In this document: one piece after another, positions 2,298-48,426 of the stretch
Layout of the letters: each line of letters starts with the position of its first letter
Numbering within the stretch: position 1 is the stretch's first letter
Assembly (NCBI GenBank): GCA_023229865.1
Contig: JALNYL010000007.1
Coordinates: forward strand, 325 to 64,324
From: Minisyncoccota bacterium
GTDB lineage: Bacteria; Patescibacteriota; Minisyncoccia; Phycocordibacterales; UBA1550
Direction: 5' to 3'
DNA: 64,000 nucleotides
The notes under the pieces: generated by a model
What the model saw: only the letters and a program-made list of their open reading frames with translations
Told to the model about the DNA's origin: nothing
The model's database searches: none
Program-made: the position numbers and the translations under genes

Positions 2298-2699
2298 ATG
2301 GGAAAAGGAAGCAATGCTGGAAAGAAGAAAGTTTTGGTCTTGGGATTCCCTGTGGATCGTCAGGCGGAACTCGAATTCGCGCTCAGCGAAGAGCTCAAGG
2401 ACACCTGTAGCGTCGTGTTTACTGCAACCCCCGAAGAAGCCATAATGAAAGTTGCTGGCTCAGACGTGGTGGCTGCAAATGTCGACACCTGCGGAGACTT
2501 TTTCGAAAAGCTGTTCAGTCGTGGTTATGAGGGGCACGTCGTCCCGATGACCTCGCGCAGGGCTCAGATGACCAAGGCTGTTACTTCCACAGGAAGGAAG
2601 GCTGTGTACCCGACTACGTTCCGCGGCGCTGCTGATGAAATCATCACTGCGCTCTCGAAGGTGAACCCTCGTTCTTCTGAAGATCTGGCAATCGCATAA
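2298..2699 (+). CDS. Hypothetical small protein, possibly a degenerate CheY-like fold
   Basis: An ATG follows GGAAGTAAAG. No diagnostic motif. Higher GC than neighbours. Confidence 0.3.
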   Translation: MGKGSNAGKKKVLVLGFPVDRQAELEFALSEELKDTCSVVFTATPEEAIMKVAGSDVVAANVDTCGDFFEKLFSRGYEGHVVPMTSRRAQMTKAVTSTGRKAVYPTTFRGAADEIITALSKVNPRSSEDLAIA

Positions 2700-2732
2700 A
2701 AGCGGAAGCACCCAGTTGCTGCCAAAAGAAAA

Positions 2733-2763
2733 GCCCGATGTCGCGAAGCGACATCGGGCTTTA
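2733..2763. terminator. Bidirectional hairpin terminator between the 2298 gene and pilB
   Basis: AAAGCCCGATGTCGCGAAGCGACATCGGGCTTT with T-runs on both sides. Confidence 0.55.
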
Positions 2764-2770
2764 TGTTTTT

Positions 2771-4450
2771 TTACCCCTCTCTCTCGAGATCGACCACGCG
2801 CTCGACTTCATCAAACGCAGTTGCTCCTGCAAGAATTTTTTCAATACCATCTTCGCGCATCGTGAGAATACCCTGCTTTGCGGCGATGAGACGAATCTCG
2901 CGCTCAGAAGGAACAGTATCAAGAAGTTCCTCAATCTCTGCATTCATAAGTACTGCCTCAAAGACACCGACGCGACCGCGATATCCAGTGTTGTTACATT
3001 TATCACAACCGACAGCGCGCCATACTTTTTTTGTCTGCACATCCTCACCAACTTTTTGTTTGATGAGCACAGCAACCTCGTCGATGATTTTTTGTTCACG
3101 CTCATTGGGTACGTCTTCCTTTTTACATTCGAGACAAAGTTTGCGCGCGAGACGCTGCGCGAGGGCTACGGTAAGTGATGAGCCAATAATTTTTGGGGTG
3201 ACACCGAGATCGATGAGGCGGGGGATTGCACCTGCGGCGGTGTTGGTGTGAAGCGTTGAGAACACCATGTGTCCTGTGAGAGCGGCGTTGATAGCCACCT
3301 TCGCTGTTTCGCCATCGCGGATTTCACCGATCATAATAACGTCAGGGTCCTGACGCATTGCAGCACGAAGTCCTTCGAGAAAGGTGTACCCTTTTCCTGC
3401 TTCAACCTGTGTCTGTGAAATTCCCTTCAAATGATATTCGATAGGGTCTTCAATGGTCATCATCTTGATTTCAGATGAGTAGATTCGCTTAAGAAACGAA
3501 TACAACGTTGTCGTCTTACCAGACCCCGTAGGACCAGTGTTCAAAATCATTCCGTGAGGCTTCTTGATCTCACGATCGATAATAGCGAGAAGACGTGGAG
3601 ACATACCAAGATCCTCGAGGGTAACATTGAGAGAAAGCGGGTTCAAAATACGCATCACCACTCCTTCGCCATACGAACCAGGAATTACCGACACGCGCAT
3701 TTCAATCTCTACGTCTGCGATTTTAATACTAAAACGTCCATCCTGGCTTTCGGTACCTACGTTGAGTTTGAGCCCCGCGAGGAGTTTGAGACGAGAACTA
3801 AAGAGGCGATAGATCTCAGAAGGAAGTGTCGCTACTTCGTGGAGGACGCCGTCGACGCGATAGCGGATATGCACCGAGTCTTCTGCTGGTTCGATGTGAA
3901 TATCAGAAGCGTGGATACCAATCGCTCCTGCCATGATCACATTAAAAATATTTGAAATATGACGCGCTGTTTTTTCAGTTACCGTCGCTTGAAGAGCTTT
4001 TGATACATCAGAGAGGGAAGTAAATCTTTTAATAAGACCCTCCATATTGTCTCCAGAAATGTCGACCATCCCCGCCTCACTTTTTGTGGCGCCAGAAATT
4101 TCGCGATAACGTTCCCATACTGTCTCGAGGCTTGCGTGAGAGACGAGGTACTGCTCAATCTTGTATCCGCGCTCTGCAAGAGAAGCGAGAATTTCTTTTG
4201 TATTACTTTGTGTTGGTGAAAAAAGTCCAACCTTCAGTTTTTTATTTGCGATTTCAAAAGGAGCGATAAGAGCAGCGCGCGCAGCATCTTCTTTGATGAG
4301 GCCAACTGCAGAGGTGTCCACAGGGACCCCTGTCAAATCAGCGTAGGGGATACCGTGCTTGCTCGCCATAACCTGCAAAAACTCCTCCTCTTCTTTTTGG
4401 TGGAGCTTCGCGAGTTGTTCGTCTCGAGTGTTTTCGTCAAAGCGCAACAT
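2771..4450 (-). CDS. pilB: Type IV pilus assembly ATPase PilB (GspE family)
   Basis: Walker A LNTGPTGSGKTTTLYS. N-terminal T2SSE_N domain (MLRFDENTRDEQ...). True start ATG at 4450; the tracked 771-aa ORF carries a spurious N-terminal extension. Confidence 0.88.
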   Translation of the reverse strand: MLRFDENTRDEQLAKLHQKEEEEFLQVMASKHGIPYADLTGVPVDTSAVGLIKEDAARAALIAPFEIANKKLKVGLFSPTQSNTKEILASLAERGYKIEQYLVSHASLETVWERYREISGATKSEAGMVDISGDNMEGLIKRFTSLSDVSKALQATVTEKTARHISNIFNVIMAGAIGIHASDIHIEPAEDSVHIRYRVDGVLHEVATLPSEIYRLFSSRLKLLAGLKLNVGTESQDGRFSIKIADVEIEMRVSVIPGSYGEGVVMRILNPLSLNVTLEDLGMSPRLLAIIDREIKKPHGMILNTGPTGSGKTTTLYSFLKRIYSSEIKMMTIEDPIEYHLKGISQTQVEAGKGYTFLEGLRAAMRQDPDVIMIGEIRDGETAKVAINAALTGHMVFSTLHTNTAAGAIPRLIDLGVTPKIIGSSLTVALAQRLARKLCLECKKEDVPNEREQKIIDEVAVLIKQKVGEDVQTKKVWRAVGCDKCNNTGYRGRVGVFEAVLMNAEIEELLDTVPSEREIRLIAAKQGILTMREDGIEKILAGATAFDEVERVVDLEREG

Positions 4451-9439: not shown

Positions 9440-11788
9440 ATGGCAAAAGACAATAACAAGAAAACACTCATCATCCTCGACGCACACGCGATTCTTCATC
9501 GCGCATATCATGCGCTTCCTGATTTTTCTTCAAGCAAGGGAGAGCCTACGGGGGCACTCTATGGGCTCTCGACAATGATTATGAAAATCATTAAGGACCT
9601 GAAGCCAGACTATATCGTCGGGTGTTTTGATATGCCACACCCAACCTTTCGTCATGAAGCCTATGAAGCATACAAGCTCGGTCGTGCGAAAGCAGAAGAC
9701 GATCTCGTGCATCAGATCAAACGCTCGCGCGATGTGTTTGTGGCACTCAACATCCCCGCATACGAGCTCCCTGGTTTTGAGGCTGACGACCTTCTCGCAA
9801 CTATTGTGGAAAAAACAAAGAAGGAAAAAGATTTGCGTGTCATCATTGCGTCGGGGGATATGGACACACTGCAGCTTGTCGACGACGATCGTGTCCTTGT
9901 GTACACACTCAAGAAGGGAATCAATGACACTATTTTGTACAACGAAAAAGCGGTGGTCGAGCGTTTTGGATTTGTGCCAGCACTTTTGCCAGACTACAAA
10001 GGCCTCCGCGGTGATCCGTCGGACAACATCATCGGCATCAAAGGCATTGGGGAAAAAACAGCGACGACCCTCATCACTACATTTGGTTCCGTTGAGGACA
10101 TGTATAAAAAATTAAAAAAGAGCCCAGAAGCTTTTAAAGAAGCTGGACTCACCCCACGCATCATCAAACTCCTTGAAGACGGAGAAGAGGAAGCACTCTT
10201 TTCAAAAACACTTGCGACCGTCCGCCGTGATGCGCCTATTGAATTTGAGTTGCCAAAGAAAATTTGGAAAGAAAGTTTTGAGCCCGCAAAGGCAGAGACA
10301 CTCTTTGCTGACCTTGATTTCCGTGGGCTCCGTGACCGCTTACATGAGCTTGTTGGTATTGTGCGTGAGGCACCCGCAAAAGAAAAGGAGGCAGAGATTG
10401 TTGATCCCACTCTTTTTAAACAAGCACAAATTGCATTATGGCTCCTTAACTCTGAGCTCACAACACCGTCGCTTGAAGACATTCTCCACCACACAAAGAA
10501 AGATAATTTTGCTGACGCCTTTGAAGAGCTCGAGGCGCGCATTGGCAAGGAGGGGCTCGGGGGTGTGTATCGTGATATTGAGCTTCCTATCGTTCCTATT
10601 ATTGAAGAGGCACAAAAATACGGCATCATCGTCGACAAGAAACACCTTGAGAAGCTTTCAAAGAAATACCACACTGAGCTCGATAAAATCACGGGACGCA
10701 TTTATGAATACGCGGGTGGTGAGTTTAATATGAATTCACCTAAGCAGCTTGGGGAAATTCTTTTTGATAAATTGAAGCTCGAAGTGAAGGGGCTCAAGAA
10801 GACAGAAGGTGGCGCGCGCTCCACGCGCGAGTCAGAACTCGTGAAGCTCCGCGAAGTACACCCGATTATTGAAGACATCCTCCTGTATCGCGAACTTCAA
10901 AAACTTCTTTCGACATACATCGACAATCTCCCCCTTCTCGTCGCAGAAGATGGACGCCTCCATACGACACTCAACCAAGCAGGGACCACAACAGGAAGAA
11001 TGTCCTCATCAAATCCAAACCTCCAGAATATCCCTGTGCGCGGAGAAATGGGGGTGGCTATCCGCGATGCCTTTGTGGCAAGGGAAGGTTCGACGCTTGT
11101 CGGTTTTGACTATTCACAGATCGAGATGCGCGTACTCGCTGCGCTCTCACAGGACGAGCATTTGATGGAAGTATTTCGCACGGGGGTTGATGTACACACA
11201 TCGGTTGCTTCGCGCGTGTTTAAGGTTGCCGAAAAAGATGTGACGACTGAGATGCGTCGCCGCGCGAAGGTAATCAACTTTGGTATCGTGTACGGTATGG
11301 GAGTGAATGCGCTCAAGGATAATCTCGGCTCGACGCGCGCTGAGGCTCAAACATTTTATGATAACTATTTTGCAACGTTCCCGAAGATTGCAAACTATTT
11401 TGAAGAAGTGAAATCACATGCAAAGAAAGATGGGTTTACGACGACGTACTTCGGTCGCCATCGTTTCTTTGCGGGGCTCAAGTCATCGATACCGTTTATC
11501 CGTGCGAGCGCTGAGCGCATGGCGATGAACGCACCTCTTCAAGGGACGGCAGCGGATATCATTAAAATTGCGATGAAGCGTGCACACGATGGGCTCGAAA
11601 AAGCAGGGCTTCTCTCGAAAGCGCATCTTATTCTCCAGATTCACGACGAACTTCTTTTTGAAGTAGAAGAGGGGAGCGTAGAAAAAGTGCGTGAAGTAGT
11701 GCGCGAGGCGATGGAGCACGCGGTGGATTTCCCTGTTCCTACCACGGTGTCTATCGAAGAAGGGGAGCGTTGGGGATCAATGAAATAA
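9440..11788 (+). CDS. polA: DNA polymerase I (5'-3' exonuclease plus polymerase domains)
   Basis: N-terminal 5' nuclease region. Polymerase motifs RRRAKVINFGIVYGMG (motif B) and LQIHDELLFEV (motif C). Confidence 0.9.
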   Translation: MAKDNNKKTLIILDAHAILHRAYHALPDFSSSKGEPTGALYGLSTMIMKIIKDLKPDYIVGCFDMPHPTFRHEAYEAYKLGRAKAEDDLVHQIKRSRDVFVALNIPAYELPGFEADDLLATIVEKTKKEKDLRVIIASGDMDTLQLVDDDRVLVYTLKKGINDTILYNEKAVVERFGFVPALLPDYKGLRGDPSDNIIGIKGIGEKTATTLITTFGSVEDMYKKLKKSPEAFKEAGLTPRIIKLLEDGEEEALFSKTLATVRRDAPIEFELPKKIWKESFEPAKAETLFADLDFRGLRDRLHELVGIVREAPAKEKEAEIVDPTLFKQAQIALWLLNSELTTPSLEDILHHTKKDNFADAFEELEARIGKEGLGGVYRDIELPIVPIIEEAQKYGIIVDKKHLEKLSKKYHTELDKITGRIYEYAGGEFNMNSPKQLGEILFDKLKLEVKGLKKTEGGARSTRESELVKLREVHPIIEDILLYRELQKLLSTYIDNLPLLVAEDGRLHTTLNQAGTTTGRMSSSNPNLQNIPVRGEMGVAIRDAFVAREGSTLVGFDYSQIEMRVLAALSQDEHLMEVFRTGVDVHTSVASRVFKVAEKDVTTEMRRRAKVINFGIVYGMGVNALKDNLGSTRAEAQTFYDNYFATFPKIANYFEEVKSHAKKDGFTTTYFGRHRFFAGLKSSIPFIRASAERMAMNAPLQGTAADIIKIAMKRAHDGLEKAGLLSKAHLILQIHDELLFEVEEGSVEKVREVVREAMEHAVDFPVPTTVSIEEGERWGSMK

Positions 11789-37025: not shown

Positions 37026-37098
37026 GGTGGCTATGGTGTAATGGTTAACACTAGAGTTTGTGGAGCTCTCGATCTGGGTTCGATTCCCAGTAGTCACC
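37026..37098 (+). tRNA. tRNA-His (anticodon GTG) with encoded G-1 and C73 discriminator
   Basis: G-1 precedes GTGGCTA. Loop TTGTGGA. Acceptor TAGTCAC + C. Confidence 0.85.
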
Positions 37099-37196
37099 CA
37101 AAAATGAAAAACTAGACTTCTTGTCCAGTTTTTCTGTTTTTACCACCCTAGATTTGATATACTTATCTCACGATTTAATAGATAATTTTTTATATT

Positions 37197-37958
37197 ATGG
37201 ATGTCCTTATCACATATGTAGCGATTGGTTTCGTAGCGATAATCATTTCAAGTATCAAGCAGGTGAACCAATGGGAACGTGGCGTGAAGTTTACCCTCGG
37301 GCGTTTTACAGGTGTGGTCAATCCAGGCTGGCGCATCATCCTCCCGGTCATTCAGGGGATGAAAAAAGTTGATATCCGTTTGAAGACGATCGACGTGCCG
37401 TCACAAGAGGCGATTACTAAAGACAACGTCTCAGCAAAGATCAACGCCGTGATCTACTATCAGGTGACCGATTCCGCAAAAGCGATTGTTGATATTCAGG
37501 ACATCGACTACGCCGTGCTCCAGCTCGCGCAGACAACGATGCGTAACATTGCCGGCTCGGTAACCCTCGATGAACTCCTCGCTGAGCGCCAGAAGATTTC
37601 TGAGCAGATTGAAACCATTGTTGATTCTGCGACAGAGACATGGGGCGTCAAAGTGACCGCCGTCGAGCTCAAGGACATCGAGCTTCCAGAAAGCATGGTG
37701 CGCACGATTGCAAAGCAGGCAGAAGCAGAGCGCGAGCGACGCGCGGTCATCATTAGTTCTGAAGGTGAAGTGTCAGCTGCAGAAAATCTCGCACAAGCTG
37801 CTCGTGTACTCTCAGCAAGCACCGGAGCGCTCCATCTCCGAACACTCAACTCCATCAACGACATCTCCTCAGATCAATCAAACACCGTAGTCTTTGCAGT
37901 ACCTCTCGAGATAATGCAGGCATTCACGGGCTATATGAAAGGGAAGAGCGGAAATTAG
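37197..37958 (+). CDS. SPFH/Band 7 (stomatin/prohibitin-like) protein
   Basis: N-terminal TM helix followed by a PHB domain (VIYYQVTD...VELKDIELPE) and a coiled coil. Confidence 0.8.
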   Translation: MDVLITYVAIGFVAIIISSIKQVNQWERGVKFTLGRFTGVVNPGWRIILPVIQGMKKVDIRLKTIDVPSQEAITKDNVSAKINAVIYYQVTDSAKAIVDIQDIDYAVLQLAQTTMRNIAGSVTLDELLAERQKISEQIETIVDSATETWGVKVTAVELKDIELPESMVRTIAKQAEAERERRAVIISSEGEVSAAENLAQAARVLSASTGALHLRTLNSINDISSDQSNTVVFAVPLEIMQAFTGYMKGKSGN

Positions 37959-39371: not shown

Positions 39372-39611
39372 ATGAAAGAAAATAAAGTAATCGTGTATTC
39401 GACCCCAATCTGCCCCTACTGCATCTACGCAAAAGATTTTTTCAAAAAGAACAACGTGCCTTTTGAAGATGCGGATGTTTCTCGTGATCGCGCTCGCGCA
39501 GAAGAGATGATAAGGAAGAGTGGGCAGATGGGCGTACCAGTGATCGATATCAATGGCGAAATCATCGTCGGTTATCAGCCAGAAGTTTTTGCAGAACTTC
39601 TTTCAAAGTAA
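39372..39611 (+). CDS. Glutaredoxin/NrdH-like redoxin
   Basis: CPYC active site. GVPVI...G motif. Confidence 0.7.
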   Translation: MKENKVIVYSTPICPYCIYAKDFFKKNNVPFEDADVSRDRARAEEMIRKSGQMGVPVIDINGEIIVGYQPEVFAELLSK

Positions 39612-39618
39612 ATACATC

Positions 39619-40014
39619 ATGACAAAAGCTACAAAAAATATTGTTATCGGACTCGGTGTCCTCATTGTGTCTCTTGTCGTCATCTTCTCGTCGACGACAA
39701 AGGCGAGCGGTGGTCTCCTCGGGGCAGATGAGTTTATCACGAAGTACCAGAGTGCTCCTGGTGCGGTGCTCCTCGATGTGCGCACGCCGGGAGAGTTTGT
39801 GGCAGGGCACATCGCCACGGCGATAAACGTCGACTATGAAAATCCCAATTTCGTAGAAGAACTCAAAAAACTCGATCCGACAAAAACATATTTCATTTAC
39901 TGTCGTTCTGGCAATAGGTCTTCGAAAGCCCTCGTGCTCATGAAGCAGAATAATTTCCAAATGGTGTACGACTTGCGCGGGGGCGTGAGTGGATCGCCCC
40001 AGCTTTTGAAGTAG
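39619..40014 (+). CDS. Membrane-anchored rhodanese-domain protein
   Basis: N-terminal TM helix. Active-site CRSGNRS. Confidence 0.7.
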   Translation: MTKATKNIVIGLGVLIVSLVVIFSSTTKASGGLLGADEFITKYQSAPGAVLLDVRTPGEFVAGHIATAINVDYENPNFVEELKKLDPTKTYFIYCRSGNRSSKALVLMKQNNFQMVYDLRGGVSGSPQLLK

Positions 40015-40036
40015 GGGGGGGTAGCCAAAAACACCA

Positions 40037-40077
40037 AAACCCCACCGCGCGTTTTATTAACGCGCGGTGGGGTTTTG
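40037..40077 (+). terminator. Intrinsic terminator
   Basis: AAAACCCCACCGCGCGTTTTATTAACGCGCGGTGGGGTTTTGTTTT. Confidence 0.6.
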
Positions 40078-40202
40078 TTTTGAATTGTTGAGATGACCGA
40101 GTTCTATGCTTAATGCAGAAATTTGGTAGCTCGGAATCTTTGGGGGTTGTCCACATTTTCCTTTAGTAAAATTACGATAAAAGTGTTAGGCTTTTGTTAT
40201 CT

Positions 40203-41033
40203 ATGTCTAAAAATGAGACAATAAAATTTTCAGGTTATCATTTGATAATTAAAGGGAAGAAAACCTTTGATTTGTCATGTTTCTCTTTGGTAGAGAGTGA
40301 GCGGACAGAACGCCTTGTTATTTCAAGCGGAGAGCAAAAAGAAACTCTTCAAGTAACTAAACACAAGAAAGTAACACACTCTGAGCGTTTTTTGACGCTG
40401 TATTTTAATTCAGGGGAAAAATATCCATATTCACCGACAGTTATCGACGGTGAACTGCAAGAAACTGATAATCCGAGGAATCCCGAGCAGATCGAACTTG
40501 ATGAACAACTTTTTGTTTTGTTTGATACCGTAACGCAGAGAATGTGGATTTCAAATCAACGAAAGAAAAATTTTATAGTAGAGTGGATAGCCAAAAAAAC
40601 AAAATTTGAAATCTCTGTTAAATCCATCCTTGACGAAGAGACATTTTTGGAAAAAATTAAATCAGTTGAGGAGGTGTCTTTTTGTGTTGTGCCGAATTTA
40701 TTTAATACTTCTGGGCAAAATACATTATCAGGGCATTTAGCCCAGGATATTTATGGGTTTGGTGCAAGCAAGGCACGCATAGAACTCTCATATAAAGATA
40801 TTTCAATTAATGATAAAATAAAGACAAGGATAAGAGAGATGCTTGGTCGTAAATCAGATTTTCAAGATGTTAGTGTTGTGGGTAGAAGTGATGAGGGGTT
40901 AGATACAATTTTTAATTTGGAGGAAGTAATAAGTAGGATTCACGTAGAAGTTGTTGCGGATAATAAATCTAAACTACTTGATCCAGTGGAAGTATTCGAT
41001 TCTTTAATTAGTAATATAAATAAATATGAGTAA
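40203..41033 (+). CDS. Hypothetical protein A of the low-GC island (an alternative TTG start lies at 40194)
   Basis: Long ORF in an AT-rich segment. No recognisable motif. Confidence 0.4.
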   Translation: MSKNETIKFSGYHLIIKGKKTFDLSCFSLVESERTERLVISSGEQKETLQVTKHKKVTHSERFLTLYFNSGEKYPYSPTVIDGELQETDNPRNPEQIELDEQLFVLFDTVTQRMWISNQRKKNFIVEWIAKKTKFEISVKSILDEETFLEKIKSVEEVSFCVVPNLFNTSGQNTLSGHLAQDIYGFGASKARIELSYKDISINDKIKTRIREMLGRKSDFQDVSVVGRSDEGLDTIFNLEEVISRIHVEVVADNKSKLLDPVEVFDSLISNINKYE

Positions 41034-41487
41034 AAAATATTTCACGGCCACTGTGTTGTTCCTAGTATCTCTACTTGTTCAAATTAAATTCTTTTCTAAT
41101 ATTCAATTTAGTCTAAGTACAATAAGCGATATAGTTACGTTTTTGTCTATCTTGTTTGGCTTTTATGTAACTAGTCTTGCGATTTTTGTAACCTCCAAGT
41201 ATGTTTCAAGTCTGTATGAGATCGTGGACCGCAATAATAAGGGGGTTACATTGCTTGATACACTGACGAACAACTACAAATTTGGATTGATCCTCACTCT
41301 CTTGTCATTAATGTATTTTATTGGAGTTCAGTTTTTTATACCTTTACAACAAAGCACACTGTCTCTTGGCGACGGAATATTTTACCCCCTAATAGGATTT
41401 CTTGTTCTAGATTTTGTTTATTGTTTTGCAATGCTTAGTGATTTAATTAAAATTATTATTCAAGAAGGCAAAAGTCGCGCGGTCTAA
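41026..41487 (+). CDS. Hypothetical 4-TM membrane protein B of the island
   Basis: Start overlaps the stop of A (ATGAGTAA). Four hydrophobic helices. Confidence 0.45.
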   Translation: MSKKYFTATVLFLVSLLVQIKFFSNIQFSLSTISDIVTFLSILFGFYVTSLAIFVTSKYVSSLYEIVDRNNKGVTLLDTLTNNYKFGLILTLLSLMYFIGVQFFIPLQQSTLSLGDGIFYPLIGFLVLDFVYCFAMLSDLIKIIIQEGKSRAV

Positions 41488-41522
41488 ATTGTTATAATTA
41501 TTCGTTTGAATAAACAAAGATT

Positions 41523-42128
41523 ATGAATGAAGAAATTTTAGCAAGAACGGAGTCTCTTTATTTAATCAATTCAAACAAGGAAAAGTGCGCTGAATTGATT
41601 AGGGAATCTGACTTATCAGCAGAGGATATGATTGACATATTTATTAGTTTGCATATCGTTCTTGAGGTTGGGCTAAATGCATTTTTTAGAAACTTGTCTT
41701 TGTTGTCTATCAAAAAAGACGTTGACACTTTTGAGATTATAAGAAATGTTGACTCGGTCAATTTTATAGATAAAACAATTATGTTTATTTATAATTCGAA
41801 ATTTGATTTTTTGAGCGAAGAAGATCTGCATAGGGCTACTGCCTATCATAGTATTATTGGCCACTTAAAACATTTTTCAGCGATGCGCAATCGGCTACTC
41901 CATGGACATTCAATAAGCACTATATTTGATGGTGAGAGAAACAGACACTCGGGATTGAAAGAAGATATAAATTTGGAAAATCTTAAAAGACAAATTTTAA
42001 AATTCAGTTTTATTTTTGAGGGAATGAAATTTTATTTAGATAAATTAGATTCGCCTCTTACTGAATCTGGGAAAGAAAGTTTTAAGGCCGAATATTTAAG
42101 TGACGAATTTTTGCCAATATTGAGATAA
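41523..42128 (+). CDS. Hypothetical protein C with an Rx4H HEPN-like motif (candidate RNase)
   Basis: KHFSAMRNRLLHGHS carries an R-x4-H motif in an otherwise alpha-helical protein. Confidence 0.35.
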   Translation: MNEEILARTESLYLINSNKEKCAELIRESDLSAEDMIDIFISLHIVLEVGLNAFFRNLSLLSIKKDVDTFEIIRNVDSVNFIDKTIMFIYNSKFDFLSEEDLHRATAYHSIIGHLKHFSAMRNRLLHGHSISTIFDGERNRHSGLKEDINLENLKRQILKFSFIFEGMKFYLDKLDSPLTESGKESFKAEYLSDEFLPILR

Positions 42129-42301
42129 CTTATCCTTTTGCCCCTTAAATCGGCCATACCTCCACACTTACTTTTTAAAACCTGGTTATGCAATGGTGAT
42201 TCATCTTTCAATCCACCTCATTGACTCTCCTCAAACTTTAATATAGAACTAACGTAGTTGGATTTGGTCTTTTAATCAATTTACAGAAACGGAGGGTTCA
42301 A

Positions 42302-43327
42302 ATGGAAATTACTCTGCAAGACAGATTCCGCGGGGCGCTTGTTGGCGTCCTTGCGGGCGATGCGCTCGGGGCGCCGTATGAGCTGGGGAAGGCGGCAGAC
42401 ATTGACGCTGACTTCGCGAAGCGCGGCGGCCTCACGGCGTTTGGTTACCAAAATCCCTTTTACGGGAAGACGGAAGACATCAAAGAGTTTCCCGCAGGGC
42501 GACCGACGGATGATTCCGATCACACTGCAGCACTCGCGAAAAGCCTCATCGAAAGCAATGGTCTCGACGAAAAAGATTTGTTCTATCGTCTGCGCAGTAT
42601 CGTCGTGAATGGCTGGAGTCCTTTGTGGGGAGGGAAGGCAGTAGGCGCCGGCAGAACGACGCGCAAAATGCTCGCCCCCGAAACCTACGAAGAGTCGTAT
42701 GCGATTCCAAGCAAGGGAGCATTCCCGAGCAACGGAAGTCTCATGCGTTCGGCACCGATGGCACTCTATTTTGCGGCGACACGCCCTACGGGTGGTATCG
42801 ACCGCGATATGGTAGCAAGGATGTCGCGTGTAACACACCGTCATCCGCTCGCGGTGCGGTGCTGCGTTGCGTATGCCTCCATCCTTTACGAACTCCTCCT
42901 GGGGTATCATCGTGACGGTGCGAGTCAGAGAGCGATTCAGCTCGGGTATGACTGGGATCATGAGAGTGGAGTTCTCAATCTTCACCGCGAAGAGATTCCC
43001 TGGCAAGTCAGTCTCGCAGACATGCTTGCTGATCCTACAGTTCACCCGCGTGACCCCTGGGGAAAGCCGGGCATCGGTGATGTACTCCTCACGCTCCATG
43101 TTGCACTCTGGGCGCTCTACACTACTTCGAGTTTCCGCGAGGGGATTACGAAAGTCGTTGCGCTTGGTGGCGACACGGATACGTACGCTGCAGTGGCCGG
43201 GGGACTCCTCGGTGCATACTATGGCGAACAAGGTATCCCGCCCGAATGGAGGAACGTTCTCCTTGGGCGACAAGTGATGGAAAACCTCGCTGATGAATTC
43301 TGTATCTGGGCAAACCAAAGTGCGTAA
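42302..43327 (+). CDS. ADP-ribosylglycohydrolase (DraG/ARH family)
   Basis: GALVGVLAGDALGAPYE and DDSDHT motifs. C-terminal GGDTDTYAAVAGGLLGA. Confidence 0.75.
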   Translation: MEITLQDRFRGALVGVLAGDALGAPYELGKAADIDADFAKRGGLTAFGYQNPFYGKTEDIKEFPAGRPTDDSDHTAALAKSLIESNGLDEKDLFYRLRSIVVNGWSPLWGGKAVGAGRTTRKMLAPETYEESYAIPSKGAFPSNGSLMRSAPMALYFAATRPTGGIDRDMVARMSRVTHRHPLAVRCCVAYASILYELLLGYHRDGASQRAIQLGYDWDHESGVLNLHREEIPWQVSLADMLADPTVHPRDPWGKPGIGDVLLTLHVALWALYTTSSFREGITKVVALGGDTDTYAAVAGGLLGAYYGEQGIPPEWRNVLLGRQVMENLADEFCIWANQSA

Positions 43328-43499
43328 CAAACTGTACTTTTCAAACCGGCGAGCAATCGCCGGTTTTTGTTTTGAGTCCACAATCGAACCCTTGATTTTT
43401 CTACAATTTTGTGTTATAAGCAAATCAGGTAGCTGTTTGTAAAACTCGTCGCCCGACATTTTGTCAGGCGACAAACTATTAAAATAGAAAGGAATAACC

Positions 43500-44714
43500 A
43501 TGCAGGAAACCACACTGACAAAGTCTGGGGTGAACCGCAGGCTCTGGAATGCAATACGAATCCTCATGTCCTCGTTGGGGGAAAATGGTATGTACGCAGG
43601 CTCTGGCCCGCGCTACCGCAACCAATGCTGGACACGCGATGTATCCCTCGCACTTTTCCCCGCGCTCTACTCGATGTGTTCGCGGGGGATGAGTATGCCG
43701 GGGGCACCGACGGACAAGGCTTACCTTTTGGGGGTTCGCGAGAAACATCTCGCGCAACTCATGGAACGCCAAGGCCCGACCGGCGCCATCCCGATTCTTT
43801 ATGCGGACAACTTCGAGCAACTTCTGTTGTCGAAGCTGTCCAAAGCAAAGTGGGACGGCAAAACGCTCGATGTGAATGGTTCGTTTGTGGCCCGTCGTAT
43901 TCTCGACGGCTACTACGCGTCCCAGGGGCGGGGGGCGGAGTTCAGCGATTTCCCCAAGGATCGTGAGTGTGGCCTCTATCGCCTCACTCCGGGTACGACA
44001 GATAGCGAGCTCATGTTCGCGTATGCTGTCTACTCGCAAAAAGAATCCACGGAAATTCATCGCAACCACGCAGACCGCGCGATCAAGCATCTCGAAGATC
44101 GTTACGTTTGGAACGGCCTGCATAATGGCGCCGACTGGCGTGACACGATGGAAGTCTTCTTTCGCGACAAGCCGCTCCTCACCAACAACGCACTGCTCTA
44201 CGCCGTGTACAAGTTGTCGGGTAATGTGGAGAAGGCGGGCGCACTGAAGGCAGAAATCGAACGTGTTCTCTGGAACGGCGAGACCTATCTCGACTATCCT
44301 GAAGCAACGCGCTTCGATCCACTCGGTGGCGCACTCGGTGTTCTTCATGGGCTGATTCCTGAGGAACGCTATGCGTCGGTGCTGGCTGGCTTCAAGTCTG
44401 TCGACACGCCGCAGGGTGTGACGATCGAGTGCAAGCACAACCCGCACCAGTCAGGCGAAGCAGAAGTCATCGAACGTACGGGCGGCATTGTTGTGTGGCC
44501 ATTTGTTGTCGGCTTCACCATTCTTGCGGCTCTCGAAATGGGCGAACATGAATTTGCTCTCGAGCAGTTCAAAAAGTTCCACAACCTCGATGGCTTTGCA
44601 GAATGGTATGACCCCGCAGACGGAAGTAAGTGGGGCGAGCACGAGCAGGGCTGGAGCGCCGCACTCTATGTGCGTGTCGTCGAAGCCCTCACACAGCGTG
44701 GTCTCCTGCAATAA
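43500..44714 (+). CDS. Glycoside hydrolase of the (alpha/alpha)6-barrel type (GDE_C / GH100 / GH63-like)
   Basis: Helical repeats with conserved W/D/E acidic residues. Weak family assignment. Confidence 0.35.
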   Translation: MQETTLTKSGVNRRLWNAIRILMSSLGENGMYAGSGPRYRNQCWTRDVSLALFPALYSMCSRGMSMPGAPTDKAYLLGVREKHLAQLMERQGPTGAIPILYADNFEQLLLSKLSKAKWDGKTLDVNGSFVARRILDGYYASQGRGAEFSDFPKDRECGLYRLTPGTTDSELMFAYAVYSQKESTEIHRNHADRAIKHLEDRYVWNGLHNGADWRDTMEVFFRDKPLLTNNALLYAVYKLSGNVEKAGALKAEIERVLWNGETYLDYPEATRFDPLGGALGVLHGLIPEERYASVLAGFKSVDTPQGVTIECKHNPHQSGEAEVIERTGGIVVWPFVVGFTILAALEMGEHEFALEQFKKFHNLDGFAEWYDPADGSKWGEHEQGWSAALYVRVVEALTQRGLLQ

Positions 44715-44817: not shown

Positions 44818-45987
44818 ATGGAGAAATACATACTGACAATTAATGGGGGATCATCGAGTATTAAGTTTGCGCTGTTTAATGCTGATGGTTCTTTTGCGGA
44901 GGTGATGACGGGCAAGATTGACCGCATCGGACTCGAGGGGTCTTTTCTCGCGTATAAGAAAGGTGCTACTGATGAGGTGGTGCAGGTGATGCCACTCCCA
45001 GATTTTGCAGCGGCAGTCGAGGCGCTCAACTCATTCCTCGGGCAGGAAGTGGATTTCAATAATATCGCTGTCGTCGGTCATCGTGTGGTGCACGGGCTCA
45101 AGCACGAGACACATATGGTGGTAACTCCCGAGCTCATCGCCGAGCTCAAGCAGACCATCCCGCTCGACCCCGAGCATCTACCTCTCGAGATTGCGATCAT
45201 TGAGACATTTGCAGAGCGACACGCCACACTCAAGCAGGTTGCGTGCTTCGACACCGTCTTCCATCACGATATGCCACGGGTTGCGCAGACGCTCCCGGTG
45301 CCGAGACGATTTGAGGCGCAGGGTGTGCACCGCTATGGGTTCCACGGACTTTCGTGTGCGTACATTATGGGAGAGCTTGCTCGTGTGGATCTCATGAATG
45401 CGGGAGGGCGGGTCATCATTGCGCATCTCGGCAATGGCGCAAGTATCACCGCGGTGAAGGAAGGCAAGAGTGTGGACACGAGTATGGGATTTACCCCTGC
45501 AGGCGGAATCCCTATGAGCACACGCATGGGCGACATTGACCCGGGGATGCTCTGGTACATTATGAAGAGCGAAGTGCTTACACTCGACGAACTCAATCAT
45601 CTCATCAATCACGAGTCGGGGCTCCTTGGTGTGTCTGAGACTACATCGGATATGCACGACCTACTCGAGAAGGAGGCGAGTGATATCCGTGCCAACGAAG
45701 CGGTGGGCCTCTTCTGCTATGAAGCAAAGAAGCGCATCGGCGCATACGCTGCGGCACTCGGCGGTATTGATACACTTATTTTTACGGGAGGAATGGGGGA
45801 GAACGCCCCGCGCATACGTAAGCGCATTTGTGAAGGGCTTCAATTTCTCGGGGTTACGCTAGATGATGCTGCAAACGAATCGAACAGAGAGATGATTGGA
45901 GCCCAGTCCGCACCCGTACGTGTGAGGGTTATGCACACCAACGAAGAGCTGATGATTGCACGCATTGCGAGCGATCTGGCGAAATAG
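44818..45987 (+). CDS. ackA: Acetate kinase
   Basis: ILTINGGSSSIKFALF N-terminus. ASKHG-type fold. Confidence 0.85.
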   Translation: MEKYILTINGGSSSIKFALFNADGSFAEVMTGKIDRIGLEGSFLAYKKGATDEVVQVMPLPDFAAAVEALNSFLGQEVDFNNIAVVGHRVVHGLKHETHMVVTPELIAELKQTIPLDPEHLPLEIAIIETFAERHATLKQVACFDTVFHHDMPRVAQTLPVPRRFEAQGVHRYGFHGLSCAYIMGELARVDLMNAGGRVIIAHLGNGASITAVKEGKSVDTSMGFTPAGGIPMSTRMGDIDPGMLWYIMKSEVLTLDELNHLINHESGLLGVSETTSDMHDLLEKEASDIRANEAVGLFCYEAKKRIGAYAAALGGIDTLIFTGGMGENAPRIRKRICEGLQFLGVTLDDAANESNREMIGAQSAPVRVRVMHTNEELMIARIASDLAK

Positions 45988-46053
45988 TTTGGCCCCACAA
46001 AATTTCTTGCTGGGAGAAACAAAATCATATTAAAAATTTTTACTTTCAAAACT

Positions 46054-48426
46054 ATGCACGAGACACAAACCCGACTCTCTCACGAGGAGCTCAACAAGAT
46101 GAACGCATATTGGCGAGCTGCAAACTATCTTTCGATTGCGCAGATTTATCTTTTTGATAACCCACTTCTCAAGGTACCCCTCGAGGCCTCACACGTGAAG
46201 CCTGTACTCCTTGGACACTGGGGGACGACCCCGGGGCAGAACTTTATCTACGTGCATCTCAATCGTGTCATCAAGAATTTTGATCTCAATATGATATATG
46301 TGTCAGGGCCAGGACACGGCGGACCTGCGCTCGTCGCCAACACATATCTTGAGGGTACGTATAGTGAGATTTATCCCAACATTTCACAAGATGAATTGGG
46401 GCTCAAGAAGCTTTTCACACAGTTTTCATTTCCGGGAGGAATCCCTAGTCACGTGTCACCTGAGTGCCCTGGCTCTATCCACGAGGGAGGCGAGCTCGGC
46501 TATTCTCTCAGTCACTCATTTGGTGCAGTGTTCGACAATCCCGACCTTATCGTCGCATGTGTCGTCGGTGACGGCGAAGCAGAGACGGGGCCACTCGCTA
46601 CATCGTGGCACTCAAATAAATTTTTGAATCCTATTTCCGATGGTGCGGTACTTCCGATACTTCACTTGAACGGGTACAAGATTGCGAACCCAACTATTTT
46701 TGCACGTATGGAGAGAGAGGAGCTCGACCAACTTCTCCGTGGATATGGATGGACGCCGTACTTCGTAGAGGGGAGCGACCCCTTGCTCATGCACGAGCTC
46801 ATGGCTGCGACACTCGACAAGGCGATCACTGAGATTAAACAAATTCAAGAGACTGCGCGCAAAACAGGCGAGCCTCATCGCCCACGTTGGCCGATGATCG
46901 TACTCCAATCGCCAAAAGGTTGGACGGGGCCAAAGATGGTGGACGGACTTCCTAATGAAAATTCTTTCCGTGCGCACCAAGTGCCCCTCACTATTGATAA
47001 AGATCATCCTGGACATCTCGCACTCCTCGAAGAGTGGCTCAAGAGCTACAAGCCTGAGGAACTTTTTGACGCAGAAGGAAAACTCATTCCCGAGCTCGCG
47101 GAGCTCGCACCAAAAGGCGAGAGGAGAATGGGTGCAAACCCTCATGCCAATGGCGGACTCTTGCTCAAGGATCTCATCATGCCTGAATATGAGAAGTATG
47201 CTGTCGATGTGCCGACACCGGGGTCAGTGCTCGCTTCGGATACGGGAGTGCTCGGAGGATTTCTCCGTGACATCATGGAGCTCAACAAGAAGGCGCGCAA
47301 TTTTAGAATCTTTGGACCTGATGAAACACTTTCAAATAAATTGAACGCAGTGTTCGATGTGACGAACCGCCAGTGGAACGCACGCACCCAAGAAGGGGAT
47401 GAGTTCCTTGCGACCGATGGTCGTGTGATGGAAATGCTCTCCGAGCACCAGTGTGAAGGGTGGCTCGAGGGCTACCTTCTCACGGGACGTCACGGACTCT
47501 TCAATAGTTATGAGGCATTTATTCATATCGTCGACTCAATGTTTAGCCAGCATGCAAAGTGGCTCAAGGTGACAAGTAAGCTCCCTTGGCGTCGTGATAT
47601 CGCATCGCTCAACTATCTCCTCGCATCGCACGTATGGCAGCAGGCGCACAATGGCTTCACCCATCAGGACCCAGGATTTATTGATCACGTGATAAATAAA
47701 AAAGCAGAAGTCGTGCGTGTGTATTTGCCACCAGATGCAAACAGCTTGCTCTCGGTGTATGACCATTGTCTCCGCAGTCGTCACTATGTGAACGTGGTTA
47801 TCGCAGGAAAATATATGGCACCGCAATGGCTCTCGATGGATGAGGCCAAGAAACATTGTACTGAGGGTATCGGTATTTGGCAGTGGGCAAGTAACGACCA
47901 AGGCAGTGAGCCTGATGTGGTGATGGTGAGCTGTGGTGATGTGCCGACCCGAGAAATCCTCGCAGCGATCATGATTCTCCGCGAGCATTTGCCTGAGATT
48001 AAAATTCGAATGGTGAATATCGTGGACCTCATGAAGATACAGCCACAATCAGAGCATCCACACGGACTCTCGGATGCGGACTTTGATTCTCTCTTTACGA
48101 AGGACAAGCATATTATGTTTGCGTTCCACGGATACCCATGGCTCATCCATCGCCTCACGTATCGTCGCAATAACCACGGCAATATCCACGTGCGTGGCTA
48201 CAAAGAAGAGGGGACGATCACGACTAACTTCGACATGACGGTAATGAATGATATGGATCGATACAATCTCGTCATTGATGTTATTAATCGTTTGCCACAG
48301 TTTGGCTCACGCGGTGACTATCTCAAGGAGTTCGCCCAGAATAAACTCATTGAGCACAAGGATTACATCAAGAAGCACGGCGAGGACATGCCGGAGATTC
48401 TGAATTGGAAATGGGAGAGGAAGTAA
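46054..48426 (+). CDS. xfp: Xylulose-5-phosphate/fructose-6-phosphate phosphoketolase
   Basis: 790 aa. N-terminal XFP signature [22 protein letters not shown]-binding region. Confidence 0.9.

Follow-up and report, generated by a model that had tools for sequence, protein, structure and literature searches.

Gene organization and base composition of the island

The DNA analyzed here is one stretch of 64 kb (referred to as the window) of a bacterium of the candidate phyla radiation, and the island in question consists of three open reading frames on the + strand, at 40203-41033, 41026-41487 and 41523-42128. These coordinates agree with those of the first-pass annotation of this DNA, which had described a tight three-gene layout with an 8-nt overlap between the first two genes. 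We designated the genes g1, g2 and g3. The features discussed below are as follows.

39553-40014: upstream flank, labeled rhodanese in the first-pass annotation
40035-40077, both strands: terminator-like hairpin with a perfect 19-bp stem (12 G-C pairs), a 5-nt loop and a T-tract on each strand
40203-41033, + strand: g1, 276 aa, soluble protein with a predicted RexA/RdgC-like two-domain fold, candidate DNA-binding sensor
41026-41033, + strand: 8-nt overlap (ATGAGTAA) between the end of g1 and the beginning of g2, as read in the sequence
41026-41487, + strand: g2, 153 aa, four-transmembrane (TM) membrane protein, candidate RexB-like effector
41523-42128, + strand: g3, 201 aa, stand-alone protein with a predicted HEPN fold, predicted metal-independent RNase
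g3 residues 116-130, + strand: motif region KHFSAMRNRLLHGHS, with R122...H127 at nt 41886-41903
41886-41909, + strand: predicted HEPN active-site motif, codons R122-N123-R124-L125-L126-H127-G128-H129 (RNxxxH, then GH)

For the start of g1, the alignments of homologs favored the ATG at 40203 rather than the TTG at 40194. The 8-nt overlap suggests translational coupling of g1 and g2. The spacing between g2 and g3 is 35 nt and is free of any convincing terminator, and the terminator-like matches within the island were only weak stems of 5-6 bp, all located in coding sequence. It is probable that g1-g2 and g3 are co-transcribed in the window. The strong bidirectional hairpin at 40035-40077, noted earlier as a clean terminator, closes the upstream rhodanese operon, and the low-GC island is bounded by it on the left. 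On the other side, the gene annotated as an ADP-ribosylglycohydrolase (ARH) was confirmed by its match to PF03747 in Pfam. The genes flanking the island in the window are metabolic genes, not defense genes, and no restriction-modification (R-M) system adjoins it there.

The GC content of the island (40194-42128) is 0.326, while the mean of the window is 0.475 (sd 0.029), a difference of about 5 sd, and this value is the lowest among all 1935-bp windows of the 64 kb. The GC3 values of the island are 0.28-0.33, as compared with 0.59 for the rhodanese gene and 0.58 for the ARH gene. The low GC content that had been noticed earlier is therefore genuine, and the horizontal acquisition proposed from it is plausible, given that the island is the GC minimum of the window. 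When the island edges were checked for signs of insertion, just short repeats of low identity were detected, with neither an integrase nor an Rfam match, and the closest tRNA is about 3 kb away.

Fold prediction for g1 and membrane topology of g2

None of the three proteins had been assigned to a family by name, and this was confirmed by searches against Pfam, PADLOC, NCBIfam and PHROGs, which gave no significant match for g1, g2 or g3. In the predicted fold of g1, the best matches were RexA (8twq) and RdgC, which is related to RexA, encircles DNA and inhibits RecA. The match to RdgC was as good as that to RexA, and extended over more residues. A Foldseek search of BFVD with the g1 model gave full-length matches (E 1e-11, TM 0.59), some of them phage proteins annotated as RdgC. 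The predicted structure of g1 thus corresponds to the RexA/RdgC two-domain fold, although the model, on which the link to RexAB rests, is of medium confidence (pLDDT 74.7; two of the five models were poor).

At the sequence level, hhalign gave a probability below 1% for g1 against lambda RexA with profiles of 17 and 120 sequences, where RexA was represented by one sequence and not by a profile; the phage collection contained too few lambda-type homologs of RexA, and these were too alike, for a good profile, with lambda RexA matching only 19 phage records by sequence. Neither g1 nor 120 members of its family matched the Pfam RexA, RexB or RdgC families, and the 120 relatives gave nothing significant in the family libraries as a whole, Kiwa in PADLOC included. 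The close and deep profiles of g1 found zero matches among PDB sequences at E<=10, and a close-family query found no relatives in the IMG/VR viral contigs. The g1 family comprises 411 clusters at 50% identity, including those from Patescibacteria.

The first-pass annotation had described g2 as a four-helix membrane protein, and four hydrophobic segments were indeed found, at about 6-26, 36-54, 87-105 and 118-145. Their spacing is similar to that of lambda RexB (8-26, 48-66, 84-102 and 116-134). An N-in/C-in topology is predicted for g2, because its K and R residues are limited to the N-terminus, the loop 57-86 and the C-terminal tail. Conservation peaks in TM2 and the cytoplasmic loop (FGFYxTSLAIFVTSxYV), and in the C-terminal LIKIIIQEAK. 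The hhalign probability of g2 against lambda RexB, taken as a single template sequence, was 0.8%, and there was no Pfam match.

g3 encodes a predicted HEPN-fold protein with an invariant motif

The model of g3 is an alpha-helical up-down bundle of the HEPN type, and the HEPN fold is confidently predicted. The motif is located at the end of helix 111-126 and continues into the next loop, and R122, N123, L126, H127, G128 and H129 are invariant across 26 diverse members of the family. [quoted passage not shown] The earlier identification of g3 as a protein with a HEPN motif was thus supported by the predicted fold and by the invariant motif at the defined position (PMC3710099). An invariant E48 is found in helix 33-62, in the context E-x3-N-x3-R (with N52 and R56), not Ex3[K/R]. 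The hallmarks of the family are the invariant H44-E48-N52-R56 on one helix, an extension of the motif (LHGH), and the beta-hairpin that follows the motif.

No significant match of g3 to a named HEPN family in Pfam (DUF4145, DUF86, HEPN_Swt1, Abi_2 and others) was obtained, and the 26 family members gave just single sub-threshold matches to HEPN_MAE_28990 (E 0.07) and HEPN_Swt1 (E 0.18). The hhalign probability of g3 against a DUF4145 protein (a single template sequence) was 0.1%, the g3 profile found zero matches among PDB sequences at E<=10, and no relatives were found in the viral contigs scanned. g3 represents a new HEPN family, unassigned in Pfam and mostly from Patescibacteria, and the motif points to a putative RNase activity.

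g1-g2 and g3 occur apart from each other in other loci

In about 18 other g1 loci, g2 directly follows g1 wherever the contig permits. The g1-g2 junction ranged from -17 to +9 nt in the 15 loci that were measured (the window and 14 others), and the pairing is kept at 25-35% identity, also in a gammaproteobacterial symbiont. These results indicate that g2 is the obligate partner of g1. In three relatives, the pair lies within Type I-like R-M operons, in the orders HsdM-HsdS-g1-g2-HsdR (L008), HsdM-g1-g2-HsdS (L040) and Type IIG-like MTase-g1-g2-DUF4145-HsdS-HsdS (L046), and it adjoins R-M systems in at least five further loci. The R-M neighbors include AlwI, DpnII, BglII and MmeI systems and an N6/N4 methylase, and genes for RT, KAP NTPase and PIN toxin-antitoxin were also found nearby. 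The g1-g2 loci are distributed patchily, in AT-rich, island-like settings, and transposases, integrases and toxin-antitoxin genes lie close by. From such neighborhoods of relatives, the defense role that had been suggested for the genes of the island is plausible.

The loci of g3 were scanned together with their flanks, as far as 10 kb to either side if the contig was long enough. This gene is often the terminal one in varied defense operons; in L003 it ends a CBASS operon (SAVED, CD-NTase), and in L004 it follows MmeI-DEAD-T5orf172-Dcm. The pooled neighbors include methylases, Type I R and S subunits, ResIII, AAA_21/AriA and Shedu SduA_C. In 28 of 30 loci, counting the window, g3 is more AT-rich than its own locus. 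The loci L025-L028, which belong to one lineage, have g3 among housekeeping genes and at the local GC content. Clustering of the neighbors detected no conserved partner or antitoxin of g3 beyond lineage-specific synteny. Many unrelated genes precede g3, and since the upstream gene is on the opposite strand in four loci, g3 can stand alone. A HEPN-MNT toxin-antitoxin was rejected for g3, as none of the 25 families listed for its pooled neighbors (114 in all) was a nucleotidyltransferase (MNT antitoxin), and no neighbor recurred.

HMM scans of all fetched loci did not detect g1 or g2 in the 29 other g3 loci (24 distinct), and g3 was never present in the approximately 18 other g1 loci. The window is the sole co-occurrence of g1-g2 and g3. 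In the closest g3 locus, L010 (81% aa), similarity to the window is limited to the g3 ORF (41516-42128) and then ackA-xfp (44818-48417), and the gene upstream of g3 encodes an 813-aa protein, whereas g1-g2 take this place in the window. The proposal that the trio is one unit thus did not hold, since g3 and g1-g2 were never found together in the other loci scanned, an observation that the first-pass annotation had itself named as evidence against it.

Interpretation as two candidate defense modules

We consider, with a rough probability of 0.6, that the island contains two unrelated candidate anti-phage defense modules, each mobile independently of the other, i.e., a RexAB-like abortive-infection pair and a solo HEPN RNase. 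The division into two modules is based on the occurrence of g3 and g1-g2 apart from each other in all other loci. In the first module, a g1 dimer with the RexA/RdgC DNA-clamp fold would sense phage DNA or intermediates of replication or recombination, and would engage g2, by which the membrane may be perturbed (ion leak, depolarization) and the infection aborted. Inside or beside R-M operons, where the pair is typically located, g1-g2 would serve as a back-up once restriction fails. The gene architecture, the co-occurrence, the predicted folds, the invariance of the motif and the neighborhoods were observed, while the DNA binding of g1, the g1-g2 interaction, the depolarization of the membrane, the RNase activity of g3 and any anti-phage phenotype are inferred. 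In the second module, g3 would cleave RNA once triggered, in the manner of an abortive-infection protein or a toxin; it is attached to many different defense operons as their final gene. The combination of genes had been called unrecognized, but g1+g2 resembles lambda RexA/RexB in predicted fold and in gene architecture. The scheme of a sensor, a membrane component and a HEPN effector thus describes a two-gene module and a one-gene module placed side by side; a conserved three-part system was not supported.

A different mechanism for the first module, of the kind known from Kiwa, is unlikely. According to this idea, g2 would sense membrane or injection stress, and g1 would clamp the incoming phage DNA and block its replication or recombination, so that the cell is not killed. 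The match of g1 to RdgC as well as to RexA, over more residues, is consistent with it, and a channel role of g2 is itself hypothetical. In Kiwa, a four-TM protein is paired with a protein that binds DNA non-specifically and stalls the replication of the phage (bioRxiv 10.1101/2023.02.26.530102). No relevant paper on KwaB together with RdgC was found in the literature.

The reading of the first-pass annotation, a single three-component system with the HEPN RNase g3 under the control of the sensor and membrane proteins g1/g2, now seems very unlikely. The layout in the window agrees with it, as the genes are on the same strand and equally AT-rich, with the 8-nt overlap, the 35-nt gap and no convincing terminator, and in the distant locus L046 g1-g2 are followed by a different HEPN protein, DUF4145. 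From L046, g1-g2 may occasionally be coupled with a HEPN protein in function. However, the DUF4145 gene of L046 sits in an R-M cluster, which is the usual partner of DUF4145 (PMC3710099), and its product has no similarity to g3. The absence of g3 from the other g1-g2 loci and of g1-g2 from the 29 other g3 loci, the varied unrelated genes preceding g3, and the four upstream genes on the opposite strand also argue against control of g3 by the pair.

There is also little chance that the island has no defense function, with g1 as an RdgC-type modulator of recombination or DNA uptake anchored by g2, g3 as a housekeeping HEPN protein for RNA processing or regulation, and the low GC content as that of an AT-rich accessory region. 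RdgC is a housekeeping modulator of recombination (PMC11077077), not every HEPN fold belongs to a toxin (MtlR and sacsin are examples), and the metabolic flanks in the window and the housekeeping context of g3 at local GC in L025-L028 fit this idea. On the other hand, the three loci with g1-g2 inside Type I-like R-M operons, the at least five others with g1-g2 beside R-M systems, and the patchy, AT-rich, island-like distribution of the pair near transposases, integrases and toxin-antitoxin genes, are against it. In addition, the RNxxxH of g3 is invariant, as is typical of active HEPN RNases, while it is lost in non-catalytic families.

Significance of the two candidate modules

RexAB is the oldest known abortive-infection system, and its mechanism is poorly understood. 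By sequence, RexAB seems narrowly spread, and a family of 411 clusters with the same predicted fold and architecture, yet unrelated to it in sequence, would greatly widen the paradigm. It is conceivable, though rather doubtful at present, that g1-g2 represents a large group of abortive-infection systems coupled to R-M that had gone unrecognized, with 411 or more clusters (50% identity) ranging from Patescibacteria to Gammaproteobacteria. Built from a clamp of the RexA/RdgC fold and a four-TM effector, such systems would monitor the R-M system that houses them, or the DNA escaping it, in a PrrC-like manner, and could take on various terminal HEPN RNases (g3 in the window; DUF4145 in L046) as a third component. 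In that case, the phage-borne RexAB would form just the tip of a cellular family that is much wider. The absence of the g1-g2 family from Pfam and PADLOC, together with its repeated occurrence in R-M operons, leads to the hypothesis of a back-up immunity for R-M. With the g3 family, the HEPN proteins gain a clade that has an invariant H-E-N-R stripe and an RNxLLHGH site, and its location at the ends of unrelated defense operons poses the question of how a solo HEPN toxin is regulated. Patescibacteria are episymbionts with small genomes and are regarded as poor in known defense systems. The presence of two compact candidate modules in a single islet, and of g3 relatives linked to CBASS, suggests that their immunity is under-annotated rather than absent.

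Comparison with known systems

Within the HEPN superfamily (HEPN/MNT toxins, DUF86/YutE, the C-terminal HEPN of AbiA, DUF4145, Swt1 and Csm6), g3 resembles DUF4145 and others in its linkage to R-M and other defense operons, but is outside every HEPN family of Pfam, and has neither MNT nor another fixed partner.

Kiwa (KwaA/KwaB) is, like g1-g2, a two-gene unit of a four-TM protein and a soluble DNA-binding partner, where the DNA binding of g1 is a prediction. In contrast to Kiwa, g1-g2 lack DUF4868, the Rossmann-like domain and the beta-barrel of KwaA, and have the opposite gene order. The assignment of g1-g2 to Kiwa itself was ruled out by the absence of DUF4868, the absence of a PADLOC match to Kiwa, and the order from soluble to TM protein, not KwaA-KwaB.

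The prrC gene sits within the EcoprrI hsd locus. In the same way, g1-g2 is lodged between hsd genes in L008, L040 and L046, and not in the window, and a back-up role when restriction is neutralized, as for systems of the PrrC/RloC type, fits this placement. PrrC is a single protein with an ABC-ATPase and a HEPN anticodon nuclease, whereas g1-g2 has neither domain.

RdgC, unlike g1, is encoded by a stand-alone housekeeping gene of about 300 aa without a membrane partner, and the Pfam RdgC family is unmatched in the 120 members of the g1 family.

From lambda RexA/RexB and RexABpp of Pseudomonas putida, the pair differs in that neither the sequences nor the profiles of g1 and g2 are similar to RexA or RexB. 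Unlike lambda Rex, which lies in the prophage immunity region beside cI, g1-g2 is chromosomal and often in R-M operons; the flanks are the rhodanese and ARH genes in the window, and R-M or defense islands in the other loci. It also constitutes a family of its own, large in size (411 clusters at 50% identity, including Patescibacteria), with none in the viral contigs scanned. RexApp is still detectable by HHpred. On the other hand, the experimentally tested RexBpp, like g2, has no detectable similarity to lambda RexB. In all of these systems, a soluble gene of about 280 aa is followed immediately by a four-TM gene of about 145-155 aa, and g2 corresponds to the four-TM partner of about 145 aa located immediately downstream. 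The sizes of g1/g2 are 276/153 aa, as compared with 279/144 aa for lambda RexA/RexB, and both pairs share the order of sensor and then membrane protein and a similar spacing of the four TM segments.

Gene content and composition of the low-GC island

The low-GC island is best read, with a probability of about 0.6, as two candidate defence modules that are probably co-transcribed in the window, namely a g1-g2 pair resembling the lambda exclusion pair RexAB and a solo HEPN RNase, g3. The first-pass annotation had described a candidate three-gene system to the right of a terminator, and its genes and terminator were recovered as follows.

40035-40077, both strands, hairpin with a perfect 19-bp stem (12 G-C pairs) and T-tracts on both strands
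40203-41033, + strand, g1, 276 aa
41026-41487, + strand, g2, 153 aa
41523-42128, + strand, g3, 201 aa

The 8-nt overlap of g1 and g2 was present as ATGAGTAA, and homolog alignments favoured the ATG at 40203 over the TTG at 40194 as the start of g1. The 35-nt spacing between g2 and g3 contained no convincing terminator. The low GC content was also borne out: the value of 0.326 is the lowest among all equal-length windows of the 64 kb (mean 0.475, sd 0.029), and GC3 was 0.28-0.33 as compared with ~0.59 for the flanking genes. As anticipated, none of the three proteins had a significant match in Pfam, PADLOC, NCBIfam or PHROGs. The source of the window is a Patescibacteria (CPR) MAG, and proteins 100% identical to the g1 and g3 products are encoded in a 'Candidatus Pacebacteria' assembly. 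Nothing that would explain the route of arrival was found in the form of flanking repeats, an adjacent tRNA, an integrase or an Rfam element. Seven tRNA genes lie upstream (13044-37099; the closest is tRNA-His, 37027-37099), none of which adjoins the island, and no integrase was seen.

Properties of the g1 and g2 proteins

From 17 sequences, AF2 gave a g1 model of medium quality (pLDDT 74.7, pTM 0.68; two of five models were poor), and the predicted fold was likened to RexA and its relative RdgC. An N-P-R...E motif at residues 90-98 (window 40470-40496) is kept family-wide: of 120 members, at least 90% have N90 and R92, and all have E98. In the model this motif falls within the loop of lowest confidence (pLDDT < 50 at residues 94-97). 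The description of g2 as a four-helix membrane protein agreed with its four hydrophobic segments (~6-26, 36-54, 87-105 and 118-145). Lys and Arg occur only at the N-terminus, in the 30-residue loop 57-86 and in the C-tail of g2, and this distribution implies an N-in/C-in topology. Conservation is strongest in TM2 with loop 57-86 and in the C-terminal LIKIIIQEAK, which are plausible contact surfaces for g1.

In the proposed action, a g1 dimer with the RexA/RdgC clamp fold would bind phage DNA or replication/recombination intermediates and would then engage the cytoplasmic loop and tail of g2, and the engaged g2 would dissipate the membrane potential through a putative channel activity, giving an abortive-infection phenotype. 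The main rival is a Kiwa-like logic, in which the membrane protein is the sensor and the DNA clamp a non-lethal effector. This is compatible with the g1 fold, because RdgC scores as well as RexA, but membership of g1-g2 in Kiwa itself fails on both domains and gene order.

Genomic context of the g1-g2 family

A word-indexed search yielded 17 homologs of g1 and 31 of g2, and a full HMMER profile search gave 411 g1 representatives at 50% identity (312 of them at E < 1e-10; nearly all 260-285 aa). In all four distant g1 members analysed (~25-35% identity; the sources include one Bathymodiolus gammaproteobacterial symbiont and one 738-kb contig), a g2 homolog lies immediately downstream (E = 1e-18 to 4e-35). 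The pair is found inside Type I-like R-M operons in three loci of other genomes.

L008, HsdM-HsdS-g1-g2-HsdR
L040, HsdM-g1-g2-HsdS
L046, Type IIG-like MTase-g1-g2-DUF4145-HsdS-HsdS

Elsewhere it adjoins R-M genes of an AlwI system, DpnII, BglII plus a methylase, MmeI and an N6/N4 methylase, and further neighbours are reverse transcriptase, KAP NTPase, PIN/MazE, Fic, integrase and IS elements. Because of this R-M embedding, a non-defence function of g1-g2 and g3 is unlikely. In L039 (1970-4733), the gene directly after the pair encodes a reverse transcriptase of 465 aa (RVT_1, E 3.7e-15) that may be a defence-associated RT. A scan of IMG/VR viral contigs with a close-family query detected no g1-g2 relatives, and the family was not found in Pfam, PADLOC or the literature searched. 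In L044, a Band_7 gene (2411-3241) located two genes ahead of g1-g2 is 60% identical to the SPFH/Band_7 gene of the window (37197-37958); the pair may have a similar chromosomal neighbourhood across related Patescibacteria.

g3 belongs to a new HEPN family

The AF2 model of g3 was confident (pLDDT 89.3, pTM 0.85) and largely helical, with a beta-hairpin at 133-142; Roquin, HI0074, Csm6 and Swt1 were lower-ranked entries listed for it. The HEPN-type motif noticed earlier held up, as all of the 26 diverse members that were aligned share R122, N123, L126, H127, G128 and H129, together with H44, E48, N52 and R56, spaced i/i+4 on one helix. According to a HEPN survey, the Rx4-6H motif terminates helix 3 and extends into the loop, its Arg is directly followed by a polar residue, and the upstream helix has a conserved acidic residue (PMC3710099). 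g3 fits the motif position (ending helix 111-126) and the polar residue exactly, and its upstream helix carries the invariant E48 as E-x3-N instead of Ex3[K/R]. It is a member of no Pfam HEPN family and has no similarity to DUF4145. Within the HEPN superfamily, g3 represents a new family with the catalytic motif intact; it is not categorically new. From these features an RNase function is reasonably predicted, and g3 would cleave RNA once activated.

The ~105 cluster-level homologs of g3 are mostly from Patescibacteria; all named ones are hypothetical proteins, and Pfam domains are absent from the whole set. A scan of viral contigs yielded no relatives. g3 lies <=40 nt behind a same-strand gene in roughly half of the loci, and can stand alone, since the upstream gene is on the opposite strand in four. 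Lineage synteny aside, no gene was found repeatedly next to g3. The operon ahead of it is, for example, CBASS (SAVED + CD-NTase) in L003 and MmeI-DEAD-T5orf172-Dcm in L004, and SMC/AAA_21-type ATPases are also encoded upstream; among the pooled neighbours are methylases, Type I R/S subunits, ResIII, AriA-like proteins and Shedu SduA_C. Of 30 loci, the window among them, 28 have a g3 that is richer in AT than the locus itself; the exceptions fall within the L025-L028 lineage, outside which g3 is AT-rich and adjoins defence genes. In L025-L028 (several MAGs labelled Saccharibacteria), g3 at ~9900-10590 does not differ in GC from the surrounding DNA and lies among conserved housekeeping genes (undecaprenyl-diphosphate synthase and a tRNA-binding-domain protein), and may represent long-term domestication.

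In L003 (2369-6585, Parcubacteria MAG) and L014, g3 is the final gene of the same operon, whose order in L003 is S24/LexA-like (213 aa), DUF2188 (77 aa), SAVED (385 aa), CD-NTase (295 aa), an unknown 225-aa protein and g3. L018 (4764-10606) has the same S24+DUF2188 pair, followed by a 1261-aa protein, a 161-aa protein and g3, which suggests a common regulatory head and HEPN tail around different defence cores. An 813-aa protein upstream of g3 in L001 (3548-5989, a Yonathbacteria locus) matches Zn_ribbon_IS1595 weakly (E 5e-4), and a faint precomputed match to the same family is recorded for a 354-aa protein that overlaps the g3 3' end in L004 (6629-7693) and resembles the product of the L023 +1 gene; both have no other annotation.

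g1-g2 and g3 occur separately outside the window

All six-frame ORFs of the fetched loci were scanned with HMMs of the three families. g2 was directly downstream of g1 in every g1 locus where the contig continues, with junctions of -17 to +9 nt (15 loci, window included). g3 was absent from all fetched g1 loci, and both g1 and g2 were absent from the 29 other g3 loci (24 distinct; flanks up to 10 kb), so that among the scanned loci the three genes meet in the window only. From the junction range and the retention of g2, g1-g2 is therefore an obligate pair, probably translationally coupled, and g3 is a separate gene.

Among the g3 loci, the closest is that of a Yonathbacteria MAG (L010; 81% aa identity), which shares nucleotide similarity with the window over exactly the g3 ORF (41516-42128, 75%) and again over ackA-xfp (44818-48417, 73%); an unrelated 813-aa gene occupies the position of g1-g2, and the genes between g3 and ackA differ. 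g3 thus occupies a variable site ahead of ackA-xfp that both loci have in common, and its neighbours there have been exchanged. Window 42302-44714, comprising the ADP-ribosylglycohydrolase gene (PF03747, GC 0.568) and, after it, a 404-aa gene with a weak glycoside-hydrolase-like match, has a GC content above the window mean of 0.475; it is missing from L010 and may therefore be a second variable insert between g3 and ackA.

In L046 (2960-9834), the gene after a distant g1-g2 pair encodes a 210-aa DUF4145 (HEPN) protein, within an R-M cluster; this order parallels that of the window, but the HEPN family is unrelated. A more far-reaching reading, in which R-M-coupled Rex-like abortive-infection systems make up a broad class with occasional recruitment of HEPN effectors, is less likely than not. 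The integrated three-component system proposed at first is largely refuted by the co-occurrence data, L046 leaving a small possibility of occasional HEPN recruitment.

Comparison with known systems

g1-g2 matches RexA/RexB in sizes, gene order and architecture, and the four segments of g2 are comparable to those of lambda RexB (144 aa; 8-26, 48-66, 84-102 and 116-134). By hhalign, g1 profiles against RexA and g2 against RexB each gave a probability < 1%. None of the 120 g1 members matched the Pfam RexA, RdgC or DUF4868 models or consistently any PADLOC model, and the family profiles had no PDB sequence match; the link of g1 to RexA is suggested by the medium-confidence model, with sequence support absent. 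g1-g2 shows a RexAB-type architecture and predicted fold within a large family, and is not categorically new. Its habitat differs: lambda Rex resides in the prophage immunity region, whereas g1-g2 lies outside such regions, often in R-M operons, and occurs in CPR among other hosts. prrC is situated between the hsd genes of the EcoprrI locus. The position of g1-g2 between hsd genes in its relatives recalls this placement and, by analogy, suggests a back-up that would fire upon evasion of restriction.
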